In this document: positions 5,574 to 63,032 of the stretch, piece by piece
Numbering within the stretch: position 1 is the first letter of the stretch
Layout of the letters: the number at the start of each line of letters is the position of its first letter
Assembly (NCBI GenBank): GCA_040389445.1
Contig: JAZJZX010000002.1
Span: forward strand, 256,102 to 320,101
DNA length: 64,000 bases
DNA from: Chloroflexota bacterium
GTDB taxonomy: Bacteria; Chloroflexota; Limnocylindria; Limnocylindrales; CSP1-4
Direction of reading: 5' to 3'
The notes under the pieces: model-generated
Databases searched by the model: none
The model's input: the letters and a program-made list of their open reading frames with translations, nothing else
What the model was told of the DNA's origin: nothing
Position numbers and translations under genes: made by a program

Positions 5574-5599
5574 CCGCCGTTCGACGGTCCACGGGTCCG

Positions 5600-5612
5600 G
5601 GTGTATACTCCG
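5600..5612 (+). promoter_or_regulatory. putative -10 element (TGTATACT) in the nusA leader
   Basis: Extended -10-like TGtaTACT at 5602-5609, about 90 nt upstream of the nusA start. Confidence 0.3.
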
Positions 5613-5641
5613 GCCCGGAATCGAATGGCCGCCTCCGAAGG

Positions 5642-5668
5642 ACGTGGGTGACCCCCACGTATTTTTTT
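5642..5668 (+). terminator. intrinsic terminator/attenuator hairpin in the nusA 5-prime leader (ACGTGGG-tgacc-CCCACGT followed by ATTTTTTT)
   Basis: Perfect 7-bp GC-rich stem with a 5-nt loop followed by a 7-T run, 25 nt before the nusA start. Could terminate ispG and/or act as a NusA autoregulatory attenuator. Confidence 0.5.
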
Positions 5669-5693
5669 CGGGCGACCGAACCGCAGACGGACA

Positions 5694-7139
5694 GTGATGG
5701 AGGGCGATGCGACCGTGAGTCGAGATTTCATCGGTGCCCTCCTCCAGCTCAACGCTGAGAAGCAGGTCCCGCGCGAGCAGTTGATCAGGACGGTCGAGGA
5801 CGCGATCGCTTCCGCCTATCGGCGCATCGCGAACGAAGAGGACATCCACGTCGAGATCGATGCCGACAGCGGCAAGATTCGCGTCTTCCGCGCTCGAACC
5901 GTGGCCGCGGACGTGGAGGACCCCCTCACGGAATTCACGCTCGAGGACGCGCGGGCCGTCAAGCCGGACGCCCAGATCGGCGAGCTCGTGGAGACGGAGC
6001 AACTCGATGGTGACGTGTTCGGGCGGATCGGTGCCCAGACCGCCAAGCAGGTTGTCCTGCAGCGCCTTCGGGAAGCCGAGCGGGACGTCGTCTACGACCA
6101 GTTTGCGAGCCGCGAAGGCGAATTGATCACCGGCACGGTGAACCGGGTCGAACCGCGCGCGATCATCCTGGATGTCGGCAAGGGCGTCGAGGGGATCCTG
6201 GCGACCACCGAGCAGTCACCGCTCGAGCACTACCGGATCGGACAGAACGTCAAGGCGTTCGTGCTCGAAGTGCGACGCCTGCCCAAGGGTCCGGCGCTCT
6301 TCGTGACGCGGACGCACAAGGGCTTCCTCAAGCGCCTGTTCGAACTCGAAGTCCCGGAGATCCACAGCGGTACGGTCGAGATCCGGGCGATCGCGCGTGA
6401 GGCCGGCAGCCGCAGCAAGGTTGCCGTGGGCTCGCGCCAGGAGGGCCTCGATCCGGTCGGCGCAACCGTCGGGCAGCGAGGCTCGCGCGTCCAGGCGGTG
6501 GTCGCGGAGCTCGGCGGCGAGAAGATCGACGTGATTCCCTGGAATGACGACGCAGCCGCCTTCGTTGCCAATGCACTCTCGCCGGCCCAGGTCCTGTCCG
6601 TGGATATCGATGTCGAACACCGGATCGCGAACGTGACGGTGCCCGAGCGGATGCTCTCGCTGGCGATCGGCCGGGAGGGTCAGAACGCCCGTCTCGCCGC
6701 GCGACTCACGGGCTGGCGGATCGACATTCGGAGTGACGTGTCGGTCGCGGAGGCGCGGGCCGCCGAGGCCGCGGGATCGCCCGACGCCCCTTCGACGCCG
6801 ACGCCGGCTGCCGAGATTCCGATCGACATGGCCGATGCCGTGGCCGTCGCCTCCGTCGATCCTGCCACCGAAGTCGAGCCGGCGGCGGACGCAACCGTGG
6901 CTGAGGCTCCGGTCCGGAAGACTCGAGCCCGCGCGAAGAAGGTTGAGGCCGAGGAATCCTCGACGCCGGCCGTCGAGGAAGCCCCGGCCGGGAAGACCCG
7001 AGCGCGAACGGCCAAGGTCGTCGTCGAACCTTCGGGTCGTGCGACCGCGGAACCTTCGGGTGATCCAACCGCGGATGTCCCAATTGCCAGGACGCGAGCG
7101 CGCACGAAGAAGGTCGCCACCGAGGAGGTGGCGTCGTAG
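5694..7139 (+). CDS. nusA: transcription termination/antitermination factor NusA with an unusual Ala/Pro/Glu-rich C-terminal tail carrying three basic TRAR(A/T)KKV repeats
   Basis: NusA N-terminal domain, S1 and KH1/KH2 sequence (…GRIGAQTAKQVVLQRLREAER…, …VAVGSRQEGLDPVGATVGQRGSRVQAV…, …AIGREGQNARLAARLTGW…). Confidence 0.9.
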   Translation: MMEGDATVSRDFIGALLQLNAEKQVPREQLIRTVEDAIASAYRRIANEEDIHVEIDADSGKIRVFRARTVAADVEDPLTEFTLEDARAVKPDAQIGELVETEQLDGDVFGRIGAQTAKQVVLQRLREAERDVVYDQFASREGELITGTVNRVEPRAIILDVGKGVEGILATTEQSPLEHYRIGQNVKAFVLEVRRLPKGPALFVTRTHKGFLKRLFELEVPEIHSGTVEIRAIAREAGSRSKVAVGSRQEGLDPVGATVGQRGSRVQAVVAELGGEKIDVIPWNDDAAAFVANALSPAQVLSVDIDVEHRIANVTVPERMLSLAIGREGQNARLAARLTGWRIDIRSDVSVAEARAAEAAGSPDAPSTPTPAAEIPIDMADAVAVASVDPATEVEPAADATVAEAPVRKTRARAKKVEAEESSTPAVEEAPAGKTRARTAKVVVEPSGRATAEPSGDPTADVPIARTRARTKKVATEEVAS

Positions 7140-50786: not shown

Positions 50787-50896
50787 GTGGAGATGGTACG
50801 CATCTGCACTCGACCCGCAAGATGGCGCGAGGATCCTCGGATCCACTTCTCGGTCGCCGCCCCCGGGTTTCTGTGACAACCTAGCTGGCACAGATC

Positions 50897-53800
50897 GTGC
50901 CTAAGCTCAGGCCCGCCACGAATCCCAGGGCACTCCCGTACACTCGGGATTGCGCGCGTCGGCTCCATAAAGGGGAGGGGCACCCGGTCTTGGCGAGCCA
51001 GCCGATCGCAAATCCCGTGATCAATTCGCCGTTCACTGAGCCGGCGCGGCATTTCCGCGTGATCGATGGCCAGGTGTCCGGCGAGATCGACGAGCGCCGC
51101 CGTCCCTCCGAGTTCTTCGTCCCGGTCGCGAAACCCAAGAAGGCCTCGCCGCAACTCACGCTGCAGTTCGGGCCTGGGATACGTCAGCAGCCGAACGAGA
51201 TCGTCAACGAGATCCGGCAGTCCGTCGAGCGGTGGCGGATCCAGGGCTACCCGCATACGACCGCGGTCACGAAGGACCTCCTGGCCCATTGGCGCGCCGA
51301 GGATCGGAGCCGTCGCCTGTTCTTCTGCCAGCTCGAGGCTGCCGAGACCGCGATCTATCTGGTCGAGGCCGCGGAGAGGACCGGCGACACAAAGGCGCTC
51401 AACGTCATCCGTGCCGAGAACGCCCGCCTGAATGACAGCCTGCCGCGAATGGCCTTCAAGATGGCCACCGGCTCCGGCAAGACGCTCGTCATGGGGATGC
51501 TGATCGCCTGGCAGGCCCTCAACAAGCTCGCGAACCCGTACGACAAGCGCTTCTCCAGCCGTTTCCTGATCGTCACGCCGGGGATCACGATCAAAGATCG
51601 CCTGCGCGTCCTGCTGCCCAACGACCCGCAGACGTTCTTTCGGGCGATGGACCTGGTCACCCCGGAACAGCTCGACCGCCTTCAGGCCGCGACCATCGAG
51701 ATCACGAACTACCACGCGCTCATTCGGCGGGACAAGGTCGAGGCTGCGGGTCTGACGAAGCGGATCCTGTCGCGGGGCGATCTGGACAACGAGCGGTTCA
51801 AGGAGACGCCGGGCGAGATGGTTCGTCGCGTGCTCCGGGTATTCGGAACGGCGAAGGACATCGTGGTCCTCAATGACGAGGCCCACCATTGCTACACGCC
51901 GGCGCCTGCCGAGGCGGCCCAGGAGGGCACGCTCGATGCCGACGAACGCACGGAGGCACGTCGAAACCAGGACGAGGCCCGGGTGTGGTTCGACGGGCTC
52001 AAGGCGGTCCGCGACAAGATCGGGATCCGCTCGATCTTCGATGTCTCCGCCACGCCCTTCTTCCTCAAGGGCTCCGGATACGCCGAGGGAACGCTCTTCC
52101 CCTGGGTCGTGTCCGACTTCGGCCTCATGGATGCCATCGAGTCCGGGATCGTCAAGATCCCACGGGTACCCGTCTCGGACGACTCGATGGTCGGCGACCT
52201 GCCGCGCTATCGGGATCTCTGGACAAGCGTCCGTGATTGGGCACCAAAGAAGGGGCTCCGAGAGACCGCGGCGGACGAGCGCGACCCGGTGCTGGCGAAA
52301 GAGCTCGAGGGCGCCCTGGAAAGCCTCTACGCCGACTACAGGCGGTCGTTCGATGACTGGGCGGCTGCTGGAATGGGTCGTCCTCCAGTCTTCATCGTCG
52401 TCTGCTCCAACACCAGCGTCAGCAAGATCGTCCACCGCTGGATCGCGGGCTACGACAAGGCGCAGCTCGACGGGACGGCCATCCCGGCACCCGGCAAGCT
52501 CCCCCTTTTCAGCAACGTCGAGGACGGTGCCTGGCGCCAGCGCCCGGTGAGCCTGCTCATCGACTCGATGCAGCTGGACCGGGGCGATGCCCTGGACCCG
52601 GCGTTCAAGAAGGCCGCCGCCCGCGAGATCGAGGAGTACAAGCGCGAGTACGTCGCCCGGTTCCCGGGCCGGAGCGCGGACGAGATCGAGGACGAGGACA
52701 TCCTCCGCGAGGTGCTCAACACCGTCGGCAAGCCGGATCGCCTGGGTGCGGAGATCAGGTGCGTCGTTTCCGTCTCGATGCTGACCGAGGGCTGGGACGC
52801 CAACACCGTGACCCACATCCTCGGGATCCGCGCCTTCGGCACGCAGCTCCTCTGCGAGCAGGTCGTGGGTCGAGCGCTCCGCCGGGCCAACTACGACCCG
52901 ACACCCGAGGGCATGTTCGAACCGGAGTACGCGGAGGTCTTGGGCGTGCCCTTTACGTTCCTCAGTACGACCGAGGCCGGCACGCCGCGCAAGCCCAAGC
53001 CGATCCTCACGGTCCGGGCGCTGCCCGAGCGAGCGAACCTCCGGATCGAATTCCCACGCGTCGTCGGCTACCGGTTCGAGATGCCGTCCGAGACGCTGAC
53101 CGCGACCTTCGATCCGTCAAGCATCCTCGAGCTCTCGACCCGCGAGGTACCGACCGAGACCCAGCTGGACCCGATCGTCGGGGAGATGAACCTGCTCCAC
53201 CTGCCGCTCAAGGAGCAGCGGATGAACACGGTGGTCTTCGCGGTCGCCAAACGGACGCTGGACAACTTCTTCCGCGACGAGGACGGCGGCGAGCGGCCCT
53301 GGCTCTTCCCGCAGCTCGCCTCGATCACCCGGCGCTGGATCGACGAGTGCGTGGCGCCCTACCTGGGTGATAGCGCCTACCCGCAACTTCTGCTGCTCGC
53401 CGAGTGGAGCCACGCGGCCGCGGAGCGTATCCATCGGGCGATCGCCAAGGGAACGTACGGCGAGCCGCGCCTCAGCCCGACGCTGCGCCTGTACGACCCG
53501 ATCGGCTCGACGGACGATGTCGTCTTCGAGACGACGAAGACCTGCTTCGCAACCACGAAGAGCCACATCAACTACGTGGCCCAGGACTCCAACTGGGAGT
53601 CCGAGCTCGCCCAGAAGCTCGAGTCGATGCCCGAGGTCGTGAGCTACGCCAAGAACCAGGGCCTGAACCTGAAGATTCCGTACACGTTCGAGGGCCGCGC
53701 CGCGAACTACGTCCCGGACTTCCTCATCCGGATCCGCGACTCGGCGTCAACGGGCCCGGACGACCTCCTGACGCTCCTGCTCGAGGTTTCCGGGGAGGCG

Positions 53801-53968
53801 AAGAAGGAGAAGGCCGCCAAGGTCGCCGCCGCGCGCGACCTCTGGGTGCCGGCCGTCAACCACTGGGGAGGCCTCGGCCGCTGGGAGTTCCTCGAGGTCA
53901 CCCACATGGAGAATGCCGCCGACCACATCCGCGCGAAGTTCCTCTCGCCTGTCGAGGCCGGCCGGTGA
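50897..53968 (+). CDS. res: Type III restriction endonuclease Res-like subunit: SF2 DEAH helicase motor plus C-terminal PD-(D/E)xK nuclease
   Basis: Helicase motifs I MATGSGKT, II LNDEAHH, III VSATP, VI QVVGRALRR; C-terminal nuclease motif YVPDFLIRI ... LLLEVSGEAKK. 1023 aa; start may be slightly downstream. Confidence 0.8.
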   Translation: MPKLRPATNPRALPYTRDCARRLHKGEGHPVLASQPIANPVINSPFTEPARHFRVIDGQVSGEIDERRRPSEFFVPVAKPKKASPQLTLQFGPGIRQQPNEIVNEIRQSVERWRIQGYPHTTAVTKDLLAHWRAEDRSRRLFFCQLEAAETAIYLVEAAERTGDTKALNVIRAENARLNDSLPRMAFKMATGSGKTLVMGMLIAWQALNKLANPYDKRFSSRFLIVTPGITIKDRLRVLLPNDPQTFFRAMDLVTPEQLDRLQAATIEITNYHALIRRDKVEAAGLTKRILSRGDLDNERFKETPGEMVRRVLRVFGTAKDIVVLNDEAHHCYTPAPAEAAQEGTLDADERTEARRNQDEARVWFDGLKAVRDKIGIRSIFDVSATPFFLKGSGYAEGTLFPWVVSDFGLMDAIESGIVKIPRVPVSDDSMVGDLPRYRDLWTSVRDWAPKKGLRETAADERDPVLAKELEGALESLYADYRRSFDDWAAAGMGRPPVFIVVCSNTSVSKIVHRWIAGYDKAQLDGTAIPAPGKLPLFSNVEDGAWRQRPVSLLIDSMQLDRGDALDPAFKKAAAREIEEYKREYVARFPGRSADEIEDEDILREVLNTVGKPDRLGAEIRCVVSVSMLTEGWDANTVTHILGIRAFGTQLLCEQVVGRALRRANYDPTPEGMFEPEYAEVLGVPFTFLSTTEAGTPRKPKPILTVRALPERANLRIEFPRVVGYRFEMPSETLTATFDPSSILELSTREVPTETQLDPIVGEMNLLHLPLKEQRMNTVVFAVAKRTLDNFFRDEDGGERPWLFPQLASITRRWIDECVAPYLGDSAYPQLLLLAEWSHAAAERIHRAIAKGTYGEPRLSPTLRLYDPIGSTDDVVFETTKTCFATTKSHINYVAQDSNWESELAQKLESMPEVVSYAKNQGLNLKIPYTFEGRAANYVPDFLIRIRDSASTGPDDLLTLLLEVSGEAKKEKAAKVAAARDLWVPAVNHWGGLGRWEFLEVTHMENAADHIRAKFLSPVEAGR

Positions 53969-54581: not shown

Positions 54582-54744
54582 GCGGCACCGTAGGGTAGGG
54601 GAGCGAGCGTGTCAAGGCTATGTCGCTAGACACTTTCGACCGGCCAGTAACATGGCCCGATGATGGCCAGGGTGGATCACCCCATGCTTACCTGGTTCGG
54701 CGGAGCAGCGACGGCGTGGCCGGGCGATAAGCCCCGGATGACGG

Positions 54745-57381
54745 ATGGCTGACAAGATGAAGCCGAAAGCCATCACGCCCGTGCGCGCCACGACCCACGC
54801 CGACACCCGCTCCAACATCCCGACTGCCGAGCTCGAGTCGTTCGCCCGCCCGGAGGAGAAGAGGCCCGCGATCGTGCGCTACCCCCGCGACCCCAGCCTG
54901 GACCCGCAGCTCGTCTGGAAGGGCAAGGACGAGCAGGACGCGGCCGACCTGGAGGTCCCGGCCGTCCCCATCTACATCCAGGAGACCATCGACCCGCTTG
55001 CGCTCGTCGAGGAGCTCCGGGCCGAGAGCGAGGGCCGGCGCGCCGAGGAGCAGCTCGGCTTCTTCGCGCCGTACACGGACCTGACGTTCGAGGAGAAGGT
55101 CGACTTCTACCGCCACCCGGGCAAGTGGTCCAACCGGATGATCCTCGGCGACTCGCTCCTCGTGATGACCAGCCTCGCCGAGAAGGAGGGCCTCAAGGGC
55201 CAGGTCCAGACCATCTACATCGACCCGCCCTACGGCATCAAATTCGGAAGTAACTGGCAGGTAAGCACGCGCAAACGCGACGTTAGGGACGGCAAGGACT
55301 CCGACCTCACGCGCCAGCCCGAACAGGTGAGGGCGTACCGGGACACCTGGGAGCTGGGGATCCACTCGTACCTCGGTTACCTGCGCGATCGCCTCGTCGC
55401 CTCACGCGAACTCCTCACCGAGTCCGGTTCGCTGTTCGTGCAGATGAACGTCGAGAACGAGCACCTTGTCCGAAGCCTGCTGGACGAGGTCTTTGGGGCT
55501 GACAACTTCTGCGGCGTCGTCACGTACCAGAAGACGACAGGGATGAGCAGCCCGGTTGCGCGGGTCAATGTGCTTGCTTCAGTCGCTGACTCCCTCCTCT
55601 GGTACGCAAAGTCAAAGGAGGTGGTGAAGTACCGCCAGCTCTATCTCGACAAGGGAATCGGCGCCGAGGGCGCCGGCGTGTACTCGTGGCTCGAACTAGA
55701 AGACGGCGCACGACGGCGAATGACGGAGCCCGAGCGACAGGGTCAGCATCCCTACCCGGCAGGGTCGCGTGTGTTTCGCGTCGGCGATCTGACCTCCATG
55801 GGCTTCGCCGAATCCGGTTCGTTCGAGTTCGAGTATTCCGGTCAGGTCTTTGGGCCCGGCCGCTCGCGACATTGGACGACGACGCGAGATGGGCTCGAGC
55901 GTCTAGCTCGGGCAGGAAGGGTGACCGTTTCTGGCGCCAGCTTCGCGTACGTCCGTTACCACGATGACTTCCGAGTCCACCCTCTCGACAACATCTGGAC
56001 TGACGTCGGGACCGGGAGCTTTACGGATCCGAAGATTTATGCGGTCCAGACGAACAGCAAGGTCGTGGAGCGCTGTCTGCTCATGACAAGCGACCCCGGT
56101 GACCTTGTCCTGGACCCAACCTGCGGCTCTGGCACGACGGCCTACGTCGCGGAGCAGTGGGGTCGCCGCTGGATCACGATCGACACGAGCCGCGTGGCGC
56201 TCGCCCTGGCGCGTTCGAGGCTGATGGCCGCGAAGTACCCGTATTACCTCCTCGCCGACTCGGAGGTCGGGATCCGCAAGGAGGCCGACGTGACCGGCCA
56301 GGTGCCGCCGAGCCCGATCCCGGCGACCGCCAACGACGTCCGCCGCGGCTTCGTGTACGAGCGCGTGCCGCACGTGACCCTGAAGTCGATCGCCCAGAAC
56401 CCGGACATCCGCGAAGGCATGACGCGCGAGGAGATCGATGCTGCGATCGCCCGCCACGCCGAGACGGAGACCCTGTTCGACCGTCCCTACGAGGACAAGA
56501 AGGTCGTCCGCGTGTCGGGCCCGTTCACAGTCGAGAGCCTGTCGCCGCACCGTGTGCTCGTCACCGGGCCCGAGGATGCCGAGGCCGCGGAGTCGACCCC
56601 GTCCGTCGACGCCGGCGCCTTCGTCACGAGCATCCTCGACAACCTCCGCCGCGCCGGCGTCCAGAACACGAAGCGCGCAGAGCGGCTCACGTTCAGCCGC
56701 CTCGACCCGTACCCGGGCGTCTTCGTCCAGGGAGTAGGGGAGTACACCGAGAGCGGCCAGGCCCGGACCGTCGCGATCGCGATCGGCCCCGAGTTCGGCA
56801 CCGTCGGCCCAGAGCTCATCCGCGATGCCGCCAAGGAGGCCGTGAAGTTCGCCGACCTCCTCGTCGTGTGCGGCTTCGCGTTCGACCCGATGGCTGGGGA
56901 GGAGGCCTCCCAGCTCGGCCGCCTCACGATCCTCCAGGCCCGCATGAACCCCGACCTCGCGATGGGGGACGAGCTCCTCAAGAAGACCGGCACCGGCAAC
57001 CTCTTCATGGTCTTCGGCGAGCCCGACATCGACGTCCGCCCGGCGGGCGACGGCCAGATCACCGTCGAGGTCCGCGGCCTCGACGTCTATGACCCGACCA
57101 CCGGCGTGCTCCGCTCGTCGTCCGTCGACGACATCGCCGCCTGGTTCCTCGACACCAACTACGACGGCGACGCCTTCTTCGTCCGCCACGCCTACTTCAC
57201 CGGCGCTGACGACCCGTATGAGAAGCTCCGTCGTGCCCTCCGCGCCGACATCAGCGACGAGGCTTGGGCGACGGTGAACTCGAACGTCTCGCGGCCGTTC
57301 CCGCGCCCTTCGACCGGCAAGGTCGCAGTGAAGGTCATCAACCACTACGGCGACGAAGTGCTCAAGGTCGTCGCGGTCTAG
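54745..57381 (+). CDS. mod: beta-class N6-adenine/N4-cytosine DNA methyltransferase, Type III Mod-like, with long C-terminal extension
   Basis: Motif IV IYIDPPYG precedes motif I DPTCGSGTT (beta permutation) with a roughly 300-aa TRD between them; 878 aa. Confidence 0.85.
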   Translation: MADKMKPKAITPVRATTHADTRSNIPTAELESFARPEEKRPAIVRYPRDPSLDPQLVWKGKDEQDAADLEVPAVPIYIQETIDPLALVEELRAESEGRRAEEQLGFFAPYTDLTFEEKVDFYRHPGKWSNRMILGDSLLVMTSLAEKEGLKGQVQTIYIDPPYGIKFGSNWQVSTRKRDVRDGKDSDLTRQPEQVRAYRDTWELGIHSYLGYLRDRLVASRELLTESGSLFVQMNVENEHLVRSLLDEVFGADNFCGVVTYQKTTGMSSPVARVNVLASVADSLLWYAKSKEVVKYRQLYLDKGIGAEGAGVYSWLELEDGARRRMTEPERQGQHPYPAGSRVFRVGDLTSMGFAESGSFEFEYSGQVFGPGRSRHWTTTRDGLERLARAGRVTVSGASFAYVRYHDDFRVHPLDNIWTDVGTGSFTDPKIYAVQTNSKVVERCLLMTSDPGDLVLDPTCGSGTTAYVAEQWGRRWITIDTSRVALALARSRLMAAKYPYYLLADSEVGIRKEADVTGQVPPSPIPATANDVRRGFVYERVPHVTLKSIAQNPDIREGMTREEIDAAIARHAETETLFDRPYEDKKVVRVSGPFTVESLSPHRVLVTGPEDAEAAESTPSVDAGAFVTSILDNLRRAGVQNTKRAERLTFSRLDPYPGVFVQGVGEYTESGQARTVAIAIGPEFGTVGPELIRDAAKEAVKFADLLVVCGFAFDPMAGEEASQLGRLTILQARMNPDLAMGDELLKKTGTGNLFMVFGEPDIDVRPAGDGQITVEVRGLDVYDPTTGVLRSSSVDDIAAWFLDTNYDGDAFFVRHAYFTGADDPYEKLRRALRADISDEAWATVNSNVSRPFPRPSTGKVAVKVINHYGDEVLKVVAV

Positions 57382-59987: not shown

Positions 59988-60362
59988 CTAGGCGGGAAGG
60001 ACCTCGAGGTCATAGGCCCGGAACGCCGAGTCTCGGGTGACGACCACGGCATCGAGCCTCGTCGCTTGCGCAACCAGCATCCGATCGAACGGATCCCGGT
60101 GGTGCACCGGCAACCGAGCTGCGGCTGCGGCATCGGCACCCGACACGGGTAGACACGTAAAGCCCTCGGCGTCGATGATCTCGAGCAGGTCCGCCGGCGC
60201 GGTCAGCTTGCCCTGGGCTCGCTTGATCTCGAGCTCCCAGACGGTCGCTGCCGAGACGATGATGTCATTGGCCGGATCTGAGATGGCGGCACGTGCATCG
60301 GGTAGCAGCTCCTCGTCGCGGGCCCACCAGAGGAACGCGTGGGCGTCGAGCAGGAGGATCAC
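59988..60362 (-). CDS. vapC: PIN-domain toxin (VapC family)
   Basis: PIN acidic residues (LLDAHAFLWW ... VWELE ... D ... TRD); overlaps the upstream antitoxin by 4 nt. Confidence 0.8.
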   Translation of the reverse strand: MILLLDAHAFLWWARDEELLPDARAAISDPANDIIVSAATVWELEIKRAQGKLTAPADLLEIIDAEGFTCLPVSGADAAAAARLPVHHRDPFDRMLVAQATRLDAVVVTRDSAFRAYDLEVLPA

Positions 60363-60601
60363 GCGCTCGAGCCCTCGAATTCGGCGGTGATCTGCTCATC
60401 TGTTGCATCGAAGTCAGCGGCAATGGTGATCTGGTCCCGCCAGCGACCAGGAACGCGCGGCGTCGTCCGATCGCGATACGGCACGAGTCGCGCCACAGGA
60501 CGACCAGCCCGCGCGATCACGATGTCCTCCCCCGCCTCAACGCGCTCGACCAGACGGGAAAGGTGCGTCTTCGCTTCGTGAATGTTGACAGCGTTGCCCA
60601 T
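60359..60601 (-). CDS. Phd/YefM-type antitoxin
   Basis: MGNAVNIHEAKTHLSRLVERVEAGEDIVIARAGRPVARLVP, the classic Phd/YefM N-terminus; partner of the PIN toxin. Confidence 0.7.
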   Translation of the reverse strand: MGNAVNIHEAKTHLSRLVERVEAGEDIVIARAGRPVARLVPYRDRTTPRVPGRWRDQITIAADFDATDEQITAEFEGSSA

Positions 60602-60640
60602 GGGCCGGATCGTACAGTGGTGAGTCATGGTTAGTCAACA

Positions 60641-60853
60641 TTAGTCCTGGCGACGGATATCCAGCCGGGCACCCATTTCTCGGGCCGCATCGAAGTCCCG
60701 TCCCTGCTGGTTCACACTCGCCCCGAACCTACGCATGCAATCGAGTTTCACGGGATTCGCGTCTTCGTCGGCGAAGATCACCGCCGAGATCTCGTGTGCG
60801 CGCGCCGCGAATGCCACGCCGTGGCCGAAGTTGCCGTTTGATGCGGCCACCAT
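60641..60853 (-). pseudogene. fragment of a PLP-dependent threonine/serine dehydratase-like gene (roughly 70-aa internal piece only)
   Basis: MVAASNGNFGHGVAFAARAHEISAVIFADEDANPVKLDCMRRFGASV matches the conserved Gly-rich PLP-binding stretch of fold-type II dehydratases. No N-terminal Lys motif and no C-terminal half; abuts the Phd/PIN module. Confidence 0.4.
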
Positions 60854-60920
60854 CGGCCGGCTCGGGCCGATGGTCCCCTCCCCTGCCAGGCCCTCGACCG
60901 CCAACCAGGTGCCCCGTGTC

Positions 60921-61100
60921 ACTGGGGACAGCAAAACGCCCGAAGGAACCGCCGCTCGATCTGCGTCCCTTCCGCCACCAGAGCAAGCTCCGGGGCGGGA
61001 CCTGTGCAAGCACCGGTCGGTCCGCTGATCGTTTGGGGCCCCTTCGGGCAAGATCTACAGTACCGTCGCCGGCCCGCGACCGGAAGGGGCGTTATCCACG
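60921..61100 (-). repeat. copy A of a paralogous ~180-nt leader element (sense on minus strand) upstream of the PLP-enzyme fragment
   Basis: Shares blocks with 61741-61930: aaaacgcccg(a/g)ag(g/a)aaccgc, tgcaagcacc, cgggcaaga(t/c)(c/g)ta(c/a)(a/t)gtacc, ttatccacga ... cgtccac. On the minus strand it ends with a hairpin plus GGGCGUUUUG. Confidence 0.4.
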
Positions 61101-61242
61101 AGATCTCGCGAAATACGGGCAAAACGCCGATCTCGTCCACATCGAATCCACGGGCCTGGAGTCGCCCGAAGCACCTGGCTCGCCGACCTGCCGATGGCGG
61201 CCGGAGGCGATCCCACGGTCCCTGCGGTCCGCACCAGAACCG

Positions 61243-61641
61243 TCACCGGCTCTCCGGATCGGGATCGGGGCCGTCGACGTTGACGTTCTGCGGGCCGGTC
61301 CCAACCCGAACGACGAACATCTCCGCGGGCTCATCGGCCGCGGTGATCTCGCGATGGACCACTCGGGCCGGGTTGAAGATGAAATCCCCGGCCACTGCCG
61401 TCATCTGCCCGCGCCCGCCGGGGCCGTAGTCGATGGTCACCTGGCCGCGGAGAACGTAGATGTAGGAGTCGCGCGCTCCATGGTGGTGCCAACCGCCGGC
61501 GAGCCCGGCGGCCGTCCGCACCCAGCCGACCCAGCGATCCTCATGGTCCAGGAGTTGCCGGCGGTCCATGCCGGGCGTTGGTGGTCCGGGTGGAATGGCC
61601 CCCTCATCGGACCGGACCAGGATTGGTCGAGCGTGCTCCAT
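61243..61641 (-). CDS. cupin-domain protein (132 aa)
   Basis: Two-motif cupin pattern (GGWHHHGARDSYIYVLRGQVTIDYG ... AGDFIFNPARVVH). Confidence 0.65.
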   Translation of the reverse strand: MEHARPILVRSDEGAIPPGPPTPGMDRRQLLDHEDRWVGWVRTAAGLAGGWHHHGARDSYIYVLRGQVTIDYGPGGRGQMTAVAGDFIFNPARVVHREITAADEPAEMFVVRVGTGPQNVNVDGPDPDPESR

Positions 61642-61740
61642 CGGTGCTCCCCTCCCAGGCTCAGGACGTGGTTCCATGAGATCGGACCGGAATCTGGCCG
61701 CCCCGGACGCTGAGGCTGAAGGCCGCGCAGCCTGCGGGCG

Positions 61741-61930
61741 GGCACACGAAAACGCCCGGAGAAACCGCTCCCCTTCCCGATCCATCCCGCCTGGTGCAAG
61801 CACCCTGCGTTCTGTGGTCACTGCAAGCACTGACCTGACCGTTCTGGTTCGTTGCCTCTCCGGGCAAGACGTAATGTACCCCGCCCCCGCTTGGCCCCGA
61901 TACCCACTTATCCACGACTTTCGCGGTTCG
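61741..61930 (-). repeat. copy B of the paralogous leader element, immediately upstream of the cupin gene
   Basis: See copy A. On the minus strand it ends ...GGAGCGGUUUCUCCGGGCGUUUUCG about 100 nt before the cupin start. Confidence 0.4.
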
Positions 61931-62087
61931 GTGACCGATTTTGAGGTCCCCGTCCACAGCCCGTCCACGCAGGGGCGCCCGAAAGGGGCAACGGGCGCCA
62001 GGCCCGGCCGACACGCCGTGGTGCGCGCTGCATGATGGCGAGGCCTCGTCTTGGGTGCGCTGCGTGCCGGCGAGGCCCCGCCGACGG

Positions 62088-63032
62088 TCAGCCCGCTCGG
62101 ATGACCCGCGGCGTGGTCGAGAGGGCCATCTTCTCCTCGAAGCGCTTCGCGGCCCGTTCGAGTCCTTCCAGGTGCGCCGCCAGGACCCGGCGGGCCTCCT
62201 CGGCGGCGGCATCGAGACCGCTGAGCTCAAAGACCTTCCAGTGGTTGAGAATCGGGATGAGCACCTCGTCCCGATGGATGCGGATGTCGTAGATGCCGGC
62301 CTTCGCGATCGCGGCTGCCTTCCGCAGGAATCCCGGGATGCCGTTGCCGGGCATCTGGAAGGCAAGAACCTCGGCCACGATCGCCTGGACCGCGCGCGAC
62401 GGCTGGATCTTCAGCGCGGCACCGAGGATGTCCCGGTAGAAGACCATGTGAAGGTTCTCGTCGGCGGCGATCCGGGTCATGATCCGATTCGCAACCGGAT
62501 CGTCGGAGTACTTCCCCGTGTTCTTGTGCGAGATCCGGGTCGCAAGCTCCTGGAAGGCCACGTAGGCAAGGCCCCGGAGCGTGTCGATGGTGTTTCGATC
62601 GTAGCCGTTCTGGAGCTGCGTCATCCGTCCTCGCTCGAGGGCGATCGGATCGAGATTGCGGGTGACCGTGAGGTAGTCGCGCAGGACGATCGCGTGACGA
62701 CCTTCTTCGGCGGTCCATCGGCCGATCCAGTTGATCCAGGCCCCGTCGCCGGCCCCGAACATCCCATGGATGAGCCGGTGGTAGGAGGGCAGGTTGTCCT
62801 CCGTCAGCAGGTTGACCTCGAAGGCCGTCTGGGCCACGCCGGTCAGGCGGGGTTGGTCGGGCGTCCAGGGATCCTTGTCGAAGTCGCGCCCGAGCCGGTA
62901 TGGGATGTAGTCGTGCGGAAACCATTCCTCGGCGACCCTGGCGTGGCGGTCGTAGAGGCGGGCTGCCTCGGGCTCAAGCTCGAACAGCAGGGCTCGATCG
63001 GCGTGCAAATCGCGTGCCGGCGTGTGGGTCAT
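62088..63032 (-). CDS. acyl-ACP desaturase (soluble di-iron, ferritin-like; DesA-type)
   Basis: Di-iron ligand motifs (EEGRH ... DENLH) and the overall acyl-ACP desaturase sequence; 314 aa. Confidence 0.85.
   Translation of the reverse strand: MTHTPARDLHADRALLFELEPEAARLYDRHARVAEEWFPHDYIPYRLGRDFDKDPWTPDQPRLTGVAQTAFEVNLLTEDNLPSYHRLIHGMFGAGDGAWINWIGRWTAEEGRHAIVLRDYLTVTRNLDPIALERGRMTQLQNGYDRNTIDTLRGLAYVAFQELATRISHKNTGKYSDDPVANRIMTRIAADENLHMVFYRDILGAALKIQPSRAVQAIVAEVLAFQMPGNGIPGFLRKAAAIAKAGIYDIRIHRDEVLIPILNHWKVFELSGLDAAAEEARRVLAAHLEGLERAAKRFEEKMALSTTPRVIRAG

Follow-up and report, generated by a model that had tools for sequence, protein, structure and literature searches.

In the T-box, BglG/LicT ribonucleic antiterminator (RAT), ANTAR and PyrR leaders, one RNA element stands before many unrelated operons, and a terminator-like hairpin with its U tract precedes the gene. 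RsmX/Y/Z (GacA box), Qrr1-5 (LuxO sites) and LhrC1-5 (LisR) are paralogous structured RNAs, often arranged in tandem, with the same boxes before each promoter. In Bacillus subtilis, the 5' end of the pyrG transcript forms an antiterminator after reiterative addition of G. The pneumococcal BOX elements (boxA-boxB(n)-boxC) have neither a promoter nor DnaA-like boxes, exist in many similar copies and behave as mobile repeats. At the DNA level, the consensus of the DnaA box is TTATNCACA (PMC4447404), and B. subtilis carries intergenic clusters of such 9-mers, in mixed orientation, upstream of promoters, including that of sda (PMC4447404, PMC3245932). In this work, we describe two copies of an element that can be set beside all these systems, found in a 64,000-nucleotide stretch of a Chloroflexota bacterium (GenBank assembly GCA_040389445.1, contig JAZJZX010000002.1, positions 256,102 to 320,101 of the forward strand; hereafter the window). 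Each copy combines DnaA-box-like sites, a predicted promoter, an RNA core closed by a helix that begins at the predicted transcript start, and a U-rich tail. Both almost certainly belong to a large and apparently undescribed cassette family of Chloroflexota of the Candidatus (Ca.) Limnocylindria type.

The two copies, unit A (60926-61152) and unit B (61742-61969), are both read on the minus strand. A sequence-only reading of the window had reported conserved blocks, in the same order, in segments 60921-61100 and 61741-61930, and had taken them for paralogous structured RNA leaders, possibly riboswitches. The blocks are where that reading placed them. The patterns CGGGCAAGAnnTAnnGTACC and AAAACGCCCGRAGRAACCGC occur exactly twice each in the window, against 0.01 expected, and a repeat search returned four collinear repeat families with a spacing of 790-817 nt, the shared blocks lying about 816 nt apart. 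Global alignment of A with B gives 151 identities over 215 aligned positions, that is 66% of 228 nt, with a score far from that of shuffles (z=11.2) and above those of all 300 random genomic segments tested. That the copies are paralogous is virtually certain. Their homology was rightly seen and its extent set too short: with a further pair of upstream "TCCAC" boxes included, the likeness gains about 50 nt on that side and ends at 61152 (A) and 61969 (B). A covariance model built from the A-type alignment of relatives finds in the window only A (145.6 bits) and B (40.4 bits), plus a weaker reverse-strand echo of A. In the open reading frames (ORFs) spanning the copies, the GUGCUUGCA block is read as GGT GCT TGC in A and as GTG CTT GCA in B, and the frame shifts likewise on the other strand. 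Since the block stands in different frames, its conservation is not coding, and a protein-coding remnant could be ruled out, the reading frame not being kept across the conserved blocks. A 241-amino-acid ORF (61243-61968, minus strand) that starts inside unit B and runs in frame into the cupin gene downstream is an artefact of the high G+C content, which reaches 68% in the window.

The two copies have the same predicted fold on the minus strand. In each, the sequence right after a TAnnnT hexamer pairs with the sequence right before GUUUU, forming a 14-bp closing helix (P1) in which GCCCGRAGGGGC is paired with GGUUCCUYCGGGC; 13-14 pairs are found across the family. The RNA core of unit A covers 112 nt (60938-61049), as delineated by its minimum free energy (MFE) fold, RNAalifold on eight orthologues and covariation, and its P1 joins GCCCGAAGGGGCC (5' arm, 61035-61049) to GGUUCCUUCGGGC (3' arm, 60938-60952). 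The 112-nt core of unit B (61754-61865), delineated by the minus-strand fold and RNAalifold on seven B-type orthologues, is closed by GCCCGGAGAGGC (5' arm, about 61851-61865) paired with GGUUUCUCCGGGC (3' arm, 61754-61768). P1 encloses in both cases a three-way junction with short inner stems and two tetraloop hairpins, H1 (60999-61018) and H2 (60972-60998) in A, both with G-CUUG-C loops, and H1 (61816-61835) and H2 (about 61788-61809) in B, with G-CUUG-C caps. Directly after P1 comes a terminator-like U-rich tail, GUUUUGCUGUCC at 60926-60937 in A, with its counterpart GUUUUCGUGUGC at 61742-61753 in B; the stem followed by GGGCGUUUU that had been noticed at the 3' end is thereby confirmed. Two P1 changes between the copies are compensatory, GCCCGGAGA/UCUCCGGGC in B standing for GCCCGAAGG/CCUUCGGGC in A. 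The MFE z-scores relative to shuffles are -2.7 (A) and -1.9 (B) on the minus strand, versus -0.6 and +0.1 on the plus strand.

The same design is found well beyond the window. At the locus of a cupin orthologue (L001; loci are numbered L001-L148), a shorter version lies downstream of the cupin gene and consists of GTGGATAA, about 45 nt, CCCGAAGGGGC, a 34-nt interior, GCGGUUCCUUCGGGA and a U tract. Scanning species-representative genomes with the pattern GTGGATAA-N(36-52)-CCCGRAGRGGC gave at least 120 matches; family counts rest on the matches listed, and the copy number per genome is a lower bound. Among the 116 matches with 41-45 nt spacing, which include A, B and the L001 unit, 110 have a complementary 3' arm within 420 nt, and filtering leaves at least 107 units in at least 96 loci. 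All these loci are in metagenome-assembled genomes (MAGs) labelled Chloroflexota by their submitters, of the Ca. Limnocylindria type, except for two MAGs with other submitters' labels (three loci). In matches from other phyla the spacing differs and the remaining parts of the design are missing, and two chance pattern matches on viral contigs have neither boxes nor P1. Five MAGs gave two separate loci each. Tandem arrays are recurrent, with three units in L123 and in L036, at least three in L067 and two each in L004, L012, L081 and L100. In L123, a stretch of about 840 nt is duplicated almost identically among the units, and this duplication and the other arrays indicate that the cassettes multiply locally.

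Known RNA classes do not account for the family. In the window, the only Rfam 15 match reaching its gathering score lies elsewhere, and 60600-62150 yields at E<=10 only noise and no glycine riboswitch; 18 family loci (128 kb) gave no match at the gathering threshold. The strings that had been thought weakly glycine-riboswitch-like belong to the 5' arm of P1. A search of the literature on Limnocylindria and Chloroflexota RNA motifs and on leaders linked to DnaA boxes found no description of the family. The Rfam match elsewhere in the window is to ASdes (RF01781, "TB sRNA"), at 62638-62705 on the plus strand (44.2 bits for a gathering score of 40). It runs antisense to the acyl-ACP desaturase gene within which it lies (62088-63032, minus strand), and probably reflects conserved desaturase coding sequence rather than a small RNA (sRNA).

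Boxes, promoter, P1 and tail are the constant parts of the family; interior length ranges between 34 and about 250 nt. P1 arm-to-arm lengths fall into classes of 60-61, 73-86, 98-117, 145-148, 157-168, 180-186, 255-259 and 274-277 nt, the interiors of which are unrelated. A hairpin motif, G(R)K(R)UYYRCAUC, occurs one to three times per RNA. The RNAs of 274-277 nt (L034, L044, L068, L073, L087), 255-259 nt (L018, L107, L078) and 180-186 nt (L017, L037, L052, L076, L077, L104, L105) have the same boxes, promoter, P1 and tail. These larger RNAs have no Rfam match, and their interiors could be separate new structured RNA classes.

The P1 counts and the folds based on MAFFT alignments are independent of the covariance model. 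In 92 unique members, twelve core P1 positions carry a standard pair in at least 80% of cases, and eleven of them in 99-100%. Pair 5 is A-U in 64 members, G-C in 17, G-U in 10 and A-C in one; pair 0 is G-C in 83 and U-A in five. Units found by the covariance model alone add a doubly compensated P1, CCCAGAGG/CCUCUGGG. RNAalifold on eight A-type and seven B-type orthologues (metagenome matches included) returns the same plan of P1, stacked inner stems and two hairpins; compensatory pairs are present in these alignments, and the loops exchange CUUG and GCAA. Pairs 9 and 10 form a tandem G-U, kept in 72 and 87 of the 92 members, which lies at 61039-61040 with 60947-60948 in A and at 61855-61856 with 61763-61764 in B. 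Because it would become A-C mismatches on the opposite strand, the minus strand is the sense strand. That G-U rather than G-C is kept at these pairs points to a site of specific recognition or to a place weakened on purpose. The A-type covariance model recovered 65 matches in 49 sources. In the alignment fitted to it, 89.8% of cells pair versus 75.7% in shuffles, 33 of 42 pairs change on both sides, and slid controls give 34-47%, figures that lean towards structure because the alignment is fitted to the model. Selection on an RNA structure on the minus strand is therefore very probable. In proposing a structured, minus-strand RNA rather than a coding sequence, the sequence-only reading had named covariation in homologues among its checks, and the exchanges at pair 5, the doubly compensated variants and the strand-specific G-U pairs support it. 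Two other ideas about the RNA were dropped: the AUG of a possible leader peptide in B is not conserved among A-type relatives, and as a mimic of the 3' end of 16S ribosomal RNA the loop reads GAUCACCUC in only few variants.

The ttatccacga...cgtccac blocks, first included in the RNA, precede the predicted start of the transcript and are better described as DnaA-box-like sites at the DNA level. In unit A, distal box 1 (61144-61152), which has homologues across the family, is CGTGGATTC in minus-strand and GAATCCACG in plus-strand reading. Also on the plus strand, distal box 2 (61133-61141) reads TCGTCCACA, which matches TTGTCCACA at 8 of 9 positions and is thus DnaA-box-like, and the proximal box (61092-61100) reads TTATCCACG, an 8/9 match to the DnaA box TTATCCACA. 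The corresponding boxes of unit B read CCGTCCACG (61961-61969), CCGTCCACA (61950-61958) and TTATCCACG (61908-61916), so that in both copies several 9-mers resembling TTATNCACA are clustered within about 120 bp. The proximal box, cGTGGATAA (TTATCCACg on the opposite strand), adjoins the -35 hexamer, its end lying 5-6 nt upstream of it in unit A, and is retained in units found by the covariance model alone, outside the box pattern. In A, B and many other units, the distal boxes are cGTGGAC and TGTGGAC, 11 nt apart and about 42 nt upstream of the proximal box. Units of the class that precedes purine nucleoside phosphorylase (PNP) genes have instead, oppositely oriented, either TTGTCCACA-n3-TGTCCACA or one perfect TTATCCACA, then one cGTGGAy 33 nt upstream of the proximal box. 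Leaving out the proximal box, which the search pattern fixes, 113 sites with at most one mismatch from TTRTCCACA occur in 107 upstream regions of 117 nt, against a background of 0.020 per region; the enrichment across the family is 54-fold. Perfect 9-mers number 33 in these regions versus 7 in 858 kb of background, and boxes are present in either orientation across the family. Whether DnaA itself binds them is, judging from this resemblance, evenly balanced; tblastn found no dnaA gene in the window or in loci L001-L148. GATC (Dam-type) sites are not enriched, with 7.8 per kb in the units versus 9.4 per kb in the background.

Between the proximal box and P1, 109 family members give the promoter profile TTgaCC-N18-TAnnGT, with conserved, spaced hexamers of the sigma-70 type; within the -10 hexamer, the second base (A) and the sixth (T) rank among the most conserved columns. 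In unit A, the predicted -35 (TTCCGG, 61080-61085) is weak and its position fits the profile, as does the predicted -10 (TACTGT, 61057-61062). In unit B, the predicted -35 (ATCGGG, 61896-61901) is also weak, and the -10 is predicted at 61873-61878 (TACATT) from the family profile and the sequence. All four hexamers are on the minus strand. It is probable that each unit has its own promoter. In the 109-member profile, 7-8 nt separate the -10 from the first base of P1, so that the predicted transcript begins at the first paired nucleotide; in unit A, the start site would be G61049 or T61050. On manual inspection, sigma-54 and ECF promoters do not fit the spacing.

The family tail, G(U/C)UU(C/U)GUUG, has on average 4.5 U in 8 nt versus 1.27 in the background, and at least four U are found in the tail 8-mer of 87% of units versus 2.8% of background 8-mers. 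A G+C-rich stem followed immediately by a U-rich tract, as in an intrinsic terminator, is therefore present. Canonical terminators do not appear to be a genome habit, scans giving no more of them than shuffles. Among the very few canonical terminator-like sites of the window, 5581-5670 on the plus strand has a promoter-like TCGACG-17-TATACT, then the hairpin ACGTGGGTGACCCCCACGT with seven consecutive T after it, and overlaps the start of the stop-to-stop frame 5652-7139.

What follows the tail was surveyed in the family loci with gene calls made by a crude GC3 rule. Of the 99 units that could be evaluated, 69 have a co-oriented ORF next to them, 7 another unit and 13 an ORF on the opposite strand; three of these 13 are PNP-class units with marginal ORF scores and are probably miscalls. 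A PNP gene (PNP_UDP_1) follows the 74-79-nt units, and PMT_2, PALP, MBL or GT87 genes or a further unit follow those of 82-86 nt. An Rce1-like gene comes after the 114-117-nt units and a GtrA-like gene after those of 145 nt. MFS or pyrophosphatase genes lie behind the 180-186-nt units, GT2 genes behind those of 274-277 nt and an ECF sigma factor gene behind those of 60 nt. Among the PNP-class loci listed, L006, L023, L079 and about 25 more have a second conserved block, GGGACGTGATCGGCATCCCGGTGTCGATACTTCC, 55-100 nt after the tail, which could be a second promoter, a ribosome-binding site or a protein site. Six of its nucleotides could pair with the hairpin loop GAUCAC, with no covariation; pairing of this loop with the GUGAUC downstream was rejected on the basis of six A-C mismatches versus one compensatory change.

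In the window, the order on the minus strand is the 3' part of an HflX-like gene, a 171-amino-acid ORF, the acyl-ACP desaturase gene, unit B, the cupin gene, unit A, a PALP fragment, a Phd/YefM antitoxin gene and a PIN toxin gene. The cupin gene (61243-61641; Pfam Cupin_2) has its ATG start codon at 61641, preceded by GGGAGGGGAG, 100 nt after the tail of B. Its product has a 100% identical counterpart in a Chloroflexota MAG, and relatives are annotated as Ca. Limnocylindria. No unit lies upstream of the cupin gene at orthologue loci L001-L003, so the adjacency of B and cupin is a local rearrangement. Moreover, no cupin gene stands between B and A in L004, L036 and L090, and B-type units elsewhere abut the next unit. 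The cupin was for these reasons rejected as a regulated gene; it is outside the family and, in this genome, probably owes its expression to read-through, either from B or from genes upstream. The initial statement that the elements lie 5' of genes holds for most of the family, about 70% of units standing just before a co-oriented gene; the cupin link is local.

The PALP remnant (60641-60920, minus strand; Pfam PALP, E=5.8e-13; tblastn against the L098 and L004 orthologues) corresponds to residues ~62-141 of the orthologue and is truncated at both ends. The window sequence departs from L004 right after the shared tail "gttttgctgtccccag"; the PALP gene thus lost its 5' and 3' parts and unit A stayed intact. 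Full PALP genes follow an intact A-type unit in L004, L036 and L098, with start codons 24-35 nt beyond the tail, too close for a further promoter to fit in between. The link is not gene-specific, contrary to what had been supposed: in L126 the gene behind an A-type unit is Rce1-like, and in L102 and L116 units of 83-85 nt stand before PALP. The remnant abuts the Phd/YefM antitoxin gene (60359-60628) and the PIN/VapC toxin gene (59988-60362), both on the minus strand. A near-identical antitoxin and PIN pair lies beside units in L126 and L139, which indicates a recurrent variable spot downstream of hflX. Farther away, a large N6/N4 DNA methylase gene (54742-57381, plus strand; Pfam N6_N4_Mtase) lies downstream of a 1028-amino-acid ORF (50885-53968) and may mark a restriction-modification or defence locus.

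From these data we propose, with moderate confidence, that each copy is a self-contained, promoter-proximal leader or attenuator cassette on the minus strand. Start site, termination, box-binding protein and any regulation of read-through are inferred as follows. A protein bound to the boxes, DnaA being the obvious candidate, would set how often the promoter fires. The nascent RNA would then fold, its 5' end being clamped to the segment before the U tract, and P1 with the U tail would act as an attenuator resembling an intrinsic terminator. Terminated transcripts would be released as fully clamped small RNAs of about 120 nt, and read-through transcripts would carry the downstream gene. Unit A may be viewed as the ancestral leader of a pyridoxal-phosphate (PLP)-enzyme gene that has since decayed, and unit B as the upstream partner in a conserved B-then-A tandem, after which the cupin would have been inserted here.

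Several observations weigh against this proposal. P1 is not a canonical short-loop hairpin, since it encloses a structured insert, of 85 nt here and of 34 to about 250 nt family-wide. A consensus terminator scan of 60600-62200 found none, and no conserved antiterminator alternative was found; by manual reading, a candidate alternative helix of GAAGGGAC with GUUCCUUC is only partly kept among A-type orthologues. Intact A-type units occur without PALP in the window, in L139 and probably in L030, the boxes of the next unit follow B-type units in L004 and L090, and the 61-nt class sits between convergent genes, where it cannot be a leader. Both the proximal box and the 5' arm of P1 were set by the pattern used for the search, a bias that the matches found with the covariance model alone offset only in part. 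Finally, the link to DnaA is one of sequence resemblance.

These observations bring in the chief rival to the attenuator, to which we give a clearly smaller, though real, probability: the units would be stand-alone, multicopy and often tandem sRNA genes with a shared activator site, their RNAs acting in trans by pairing or as a protein sponge, and gene adjacency would be incidental or a matter of read-through. Each unit has a promoter to itself, folds into a closed structure and ends in a U-rich 3' tail, and tandem arrays are common. The orphan 61-nt class between convergent genes, the B-type units that have no gene but a second unit behind them (such tandems recur in L036, L125, L126 and L147) and the A-type units that stay intact after loss of PALP suggest that the RNA may have a value of its own, and the hairpin motif recurring one to three times per RNA points the same way. 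However, 70% of units have a co-oriented ORF directly downstream, often after a gap of less than 60 nt and with no second promoter. Moreover, the loops of A and B are not fixed (CUUG versus GCAA), contrary to what a sequence-specific seed or protein site would require, and complementarity to targets was not found. The attenuator and the trans-acting sRNA can in any case hold together, any leader that terminates being a small RNA in its own right.

A role at the DNA level appears improbable. The box clusters would then titrate or modulate DnaA, in the manner of the DnaA-box clusters of B. subtilis or of datA and DARS in Escherichia coli, and the short self-terminating unit would merely tune or insulate them. 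Three or four high-quality DnaA-type boxes per unit, in fixed geometry and in either orientation, could be understood in this way, as could the presence of several units per genome (two separate loci in five MAGs) and a terminator-like structure right after the promoter, which would confine transcription. There is also a precedent, clusters outside oriC being described as affecting replication and neighbouring genes (PMC4447404; PMC3245932). On the other hand, strand-specific G-U pairs, compensatory changes and tetraloops reveal strong selection on the RNA, and the fixed position of the proximal box relative to the -35 points to control of transcription. Three to four boxes would also be few for a titration site, and DnaA binding is so far a matter of resemblance.

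It is very unlikely that the units are metabolite riboswitches, with an aptamer built from the conserved blocks and an expression platform made of the stem and GGGCGUUUU, as had been suggested at first. A structured RNA with a P1 helix and a terminator-like end, located 5' of genes, does recall a riboswitch, and the A-type unit precedes PALP in three loci (L004, L036, L098). Nevertheless, a shared ligand-binding core is absent, only P1 and the tail being conserved around interiors that bring the arm-to-arm distance from 60 to 277 nt, and half of the "conserved blocks" are promoter DNA. No Rfam match was obtained even at E<=10. The gene association is loose, as illustrated by the Rce1-like gene of L126 and by PALP behind other interiors in L102 and L116, and no single pathway lies downstream, where PNP, PALP, glycosyltransferase, MFS, pyrophosphatase, ECF sigma factor and MBL-fold genes are found. 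An equally slight chance can be given to a selfish or neutral repeat (a miniature inverted-repeat transposable element or a BOX-like element) or a leftover of local duplication with structure as a by-product, since the modular build with constant ends and variable internal hairpins, the recent tandem duplication in L123 and the variable region beside a toxin-antitoxin pair and a pseudogene are outweighed by boxes, promoter, P1 and tail kept at 66% identity, by synteny across species (about 30 PNP-leader loci among the matches listed; B-then-A tandems in L004, L036, L090, L125, L126 and L147), by compensatory substitutions denoting purifying selection on pairing, by the absence of units on viral contigs and by ends that are boxes on one side and a U tail on the other, with no terminal inverted repeats or target-site duplications seen, no systematic search for duplications having been made.

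More speculatively, the family could be a clade-wide system of Ca. Limnocylindria, in which DnaA or a protein of the same specificity gates portable cassettes, many per genome, each yielding an RNA with a constant 5'/3' clamp, a terminator-like tail and a swappable structured insert; we give this a modest probability. Ca. Limnocylindria are abundant uncultivated Chloroflexota of soil and freshwater, and we found no literature on their gene regulation. If this were true, replication status would be coupled to nucleotide-salvage, envelope-glycosylation and other genes, free clamped small RNAs would have a role of their own, and the modular riboregulator design would be one without a described counterpart. 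If the boxes are DnaA sites, the replication initiator would act as a global transcription factor by means of a copied cassette. In addition, the conserved promoter, the DnaA-like boxes and the covariation-supported RNA, with about 100 examples, provide a marker for a regulon. The design in which the first nucleotides of the transcript would form a terminator-like helix around a swappable insert is unusual, and bears on how attenuators and sRNAs may arise from each other.

How, then, does the family compare with the systems introduced at the outset? With the T-box, RAT, ANTAR and PyrR leaders, it shares one RNA element before many unrelated operons and a terminator-like end before the gene. 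In those leaders, however, an internal binding hairpin is conserved, whereas here it is the closing helix, formed from the 5' end of the predicted transcript. Furthermore, no antiterminator or partner is known here, the promoter and the protein sites are conserved together with the RNA, and there is no Rfam match to those families. With RsmX/Y/Z, Qrr1-5 and LhrC1-5, besides paralogy, tandem arrangement and common boxes, the units have in common a terminator and repeated hairpin modules; they differ in that most units stand before a co-oriented gene, that the boxes are DnaA-like and that A and B have no conserved single-stranded seed or GGA-type loop motif. The DnaA-box clusters of B. subtilis and the sda promoter offer a parallel for TTATNCACA-like 9-mers upstream of a promoter, a likeness of sequence, but the present boxes have a fixed geometry, are copied at many promoters and are always fused to the start of a structured RNA. 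As in pyrG attenuation, the extreme 5' nucleotides would join the helix that decides on termination; here, the 5' end would form the terminator-like helix itself, and there is no evidence for reiterative transcription. Finally, like BOX elements, the units have pairing constant ends, variable internal modules, stable RNA folds and intergenic positions near genes, but they are diverged in sequence and syntenic across species, and their paired positions have evolved by compensatory changes.

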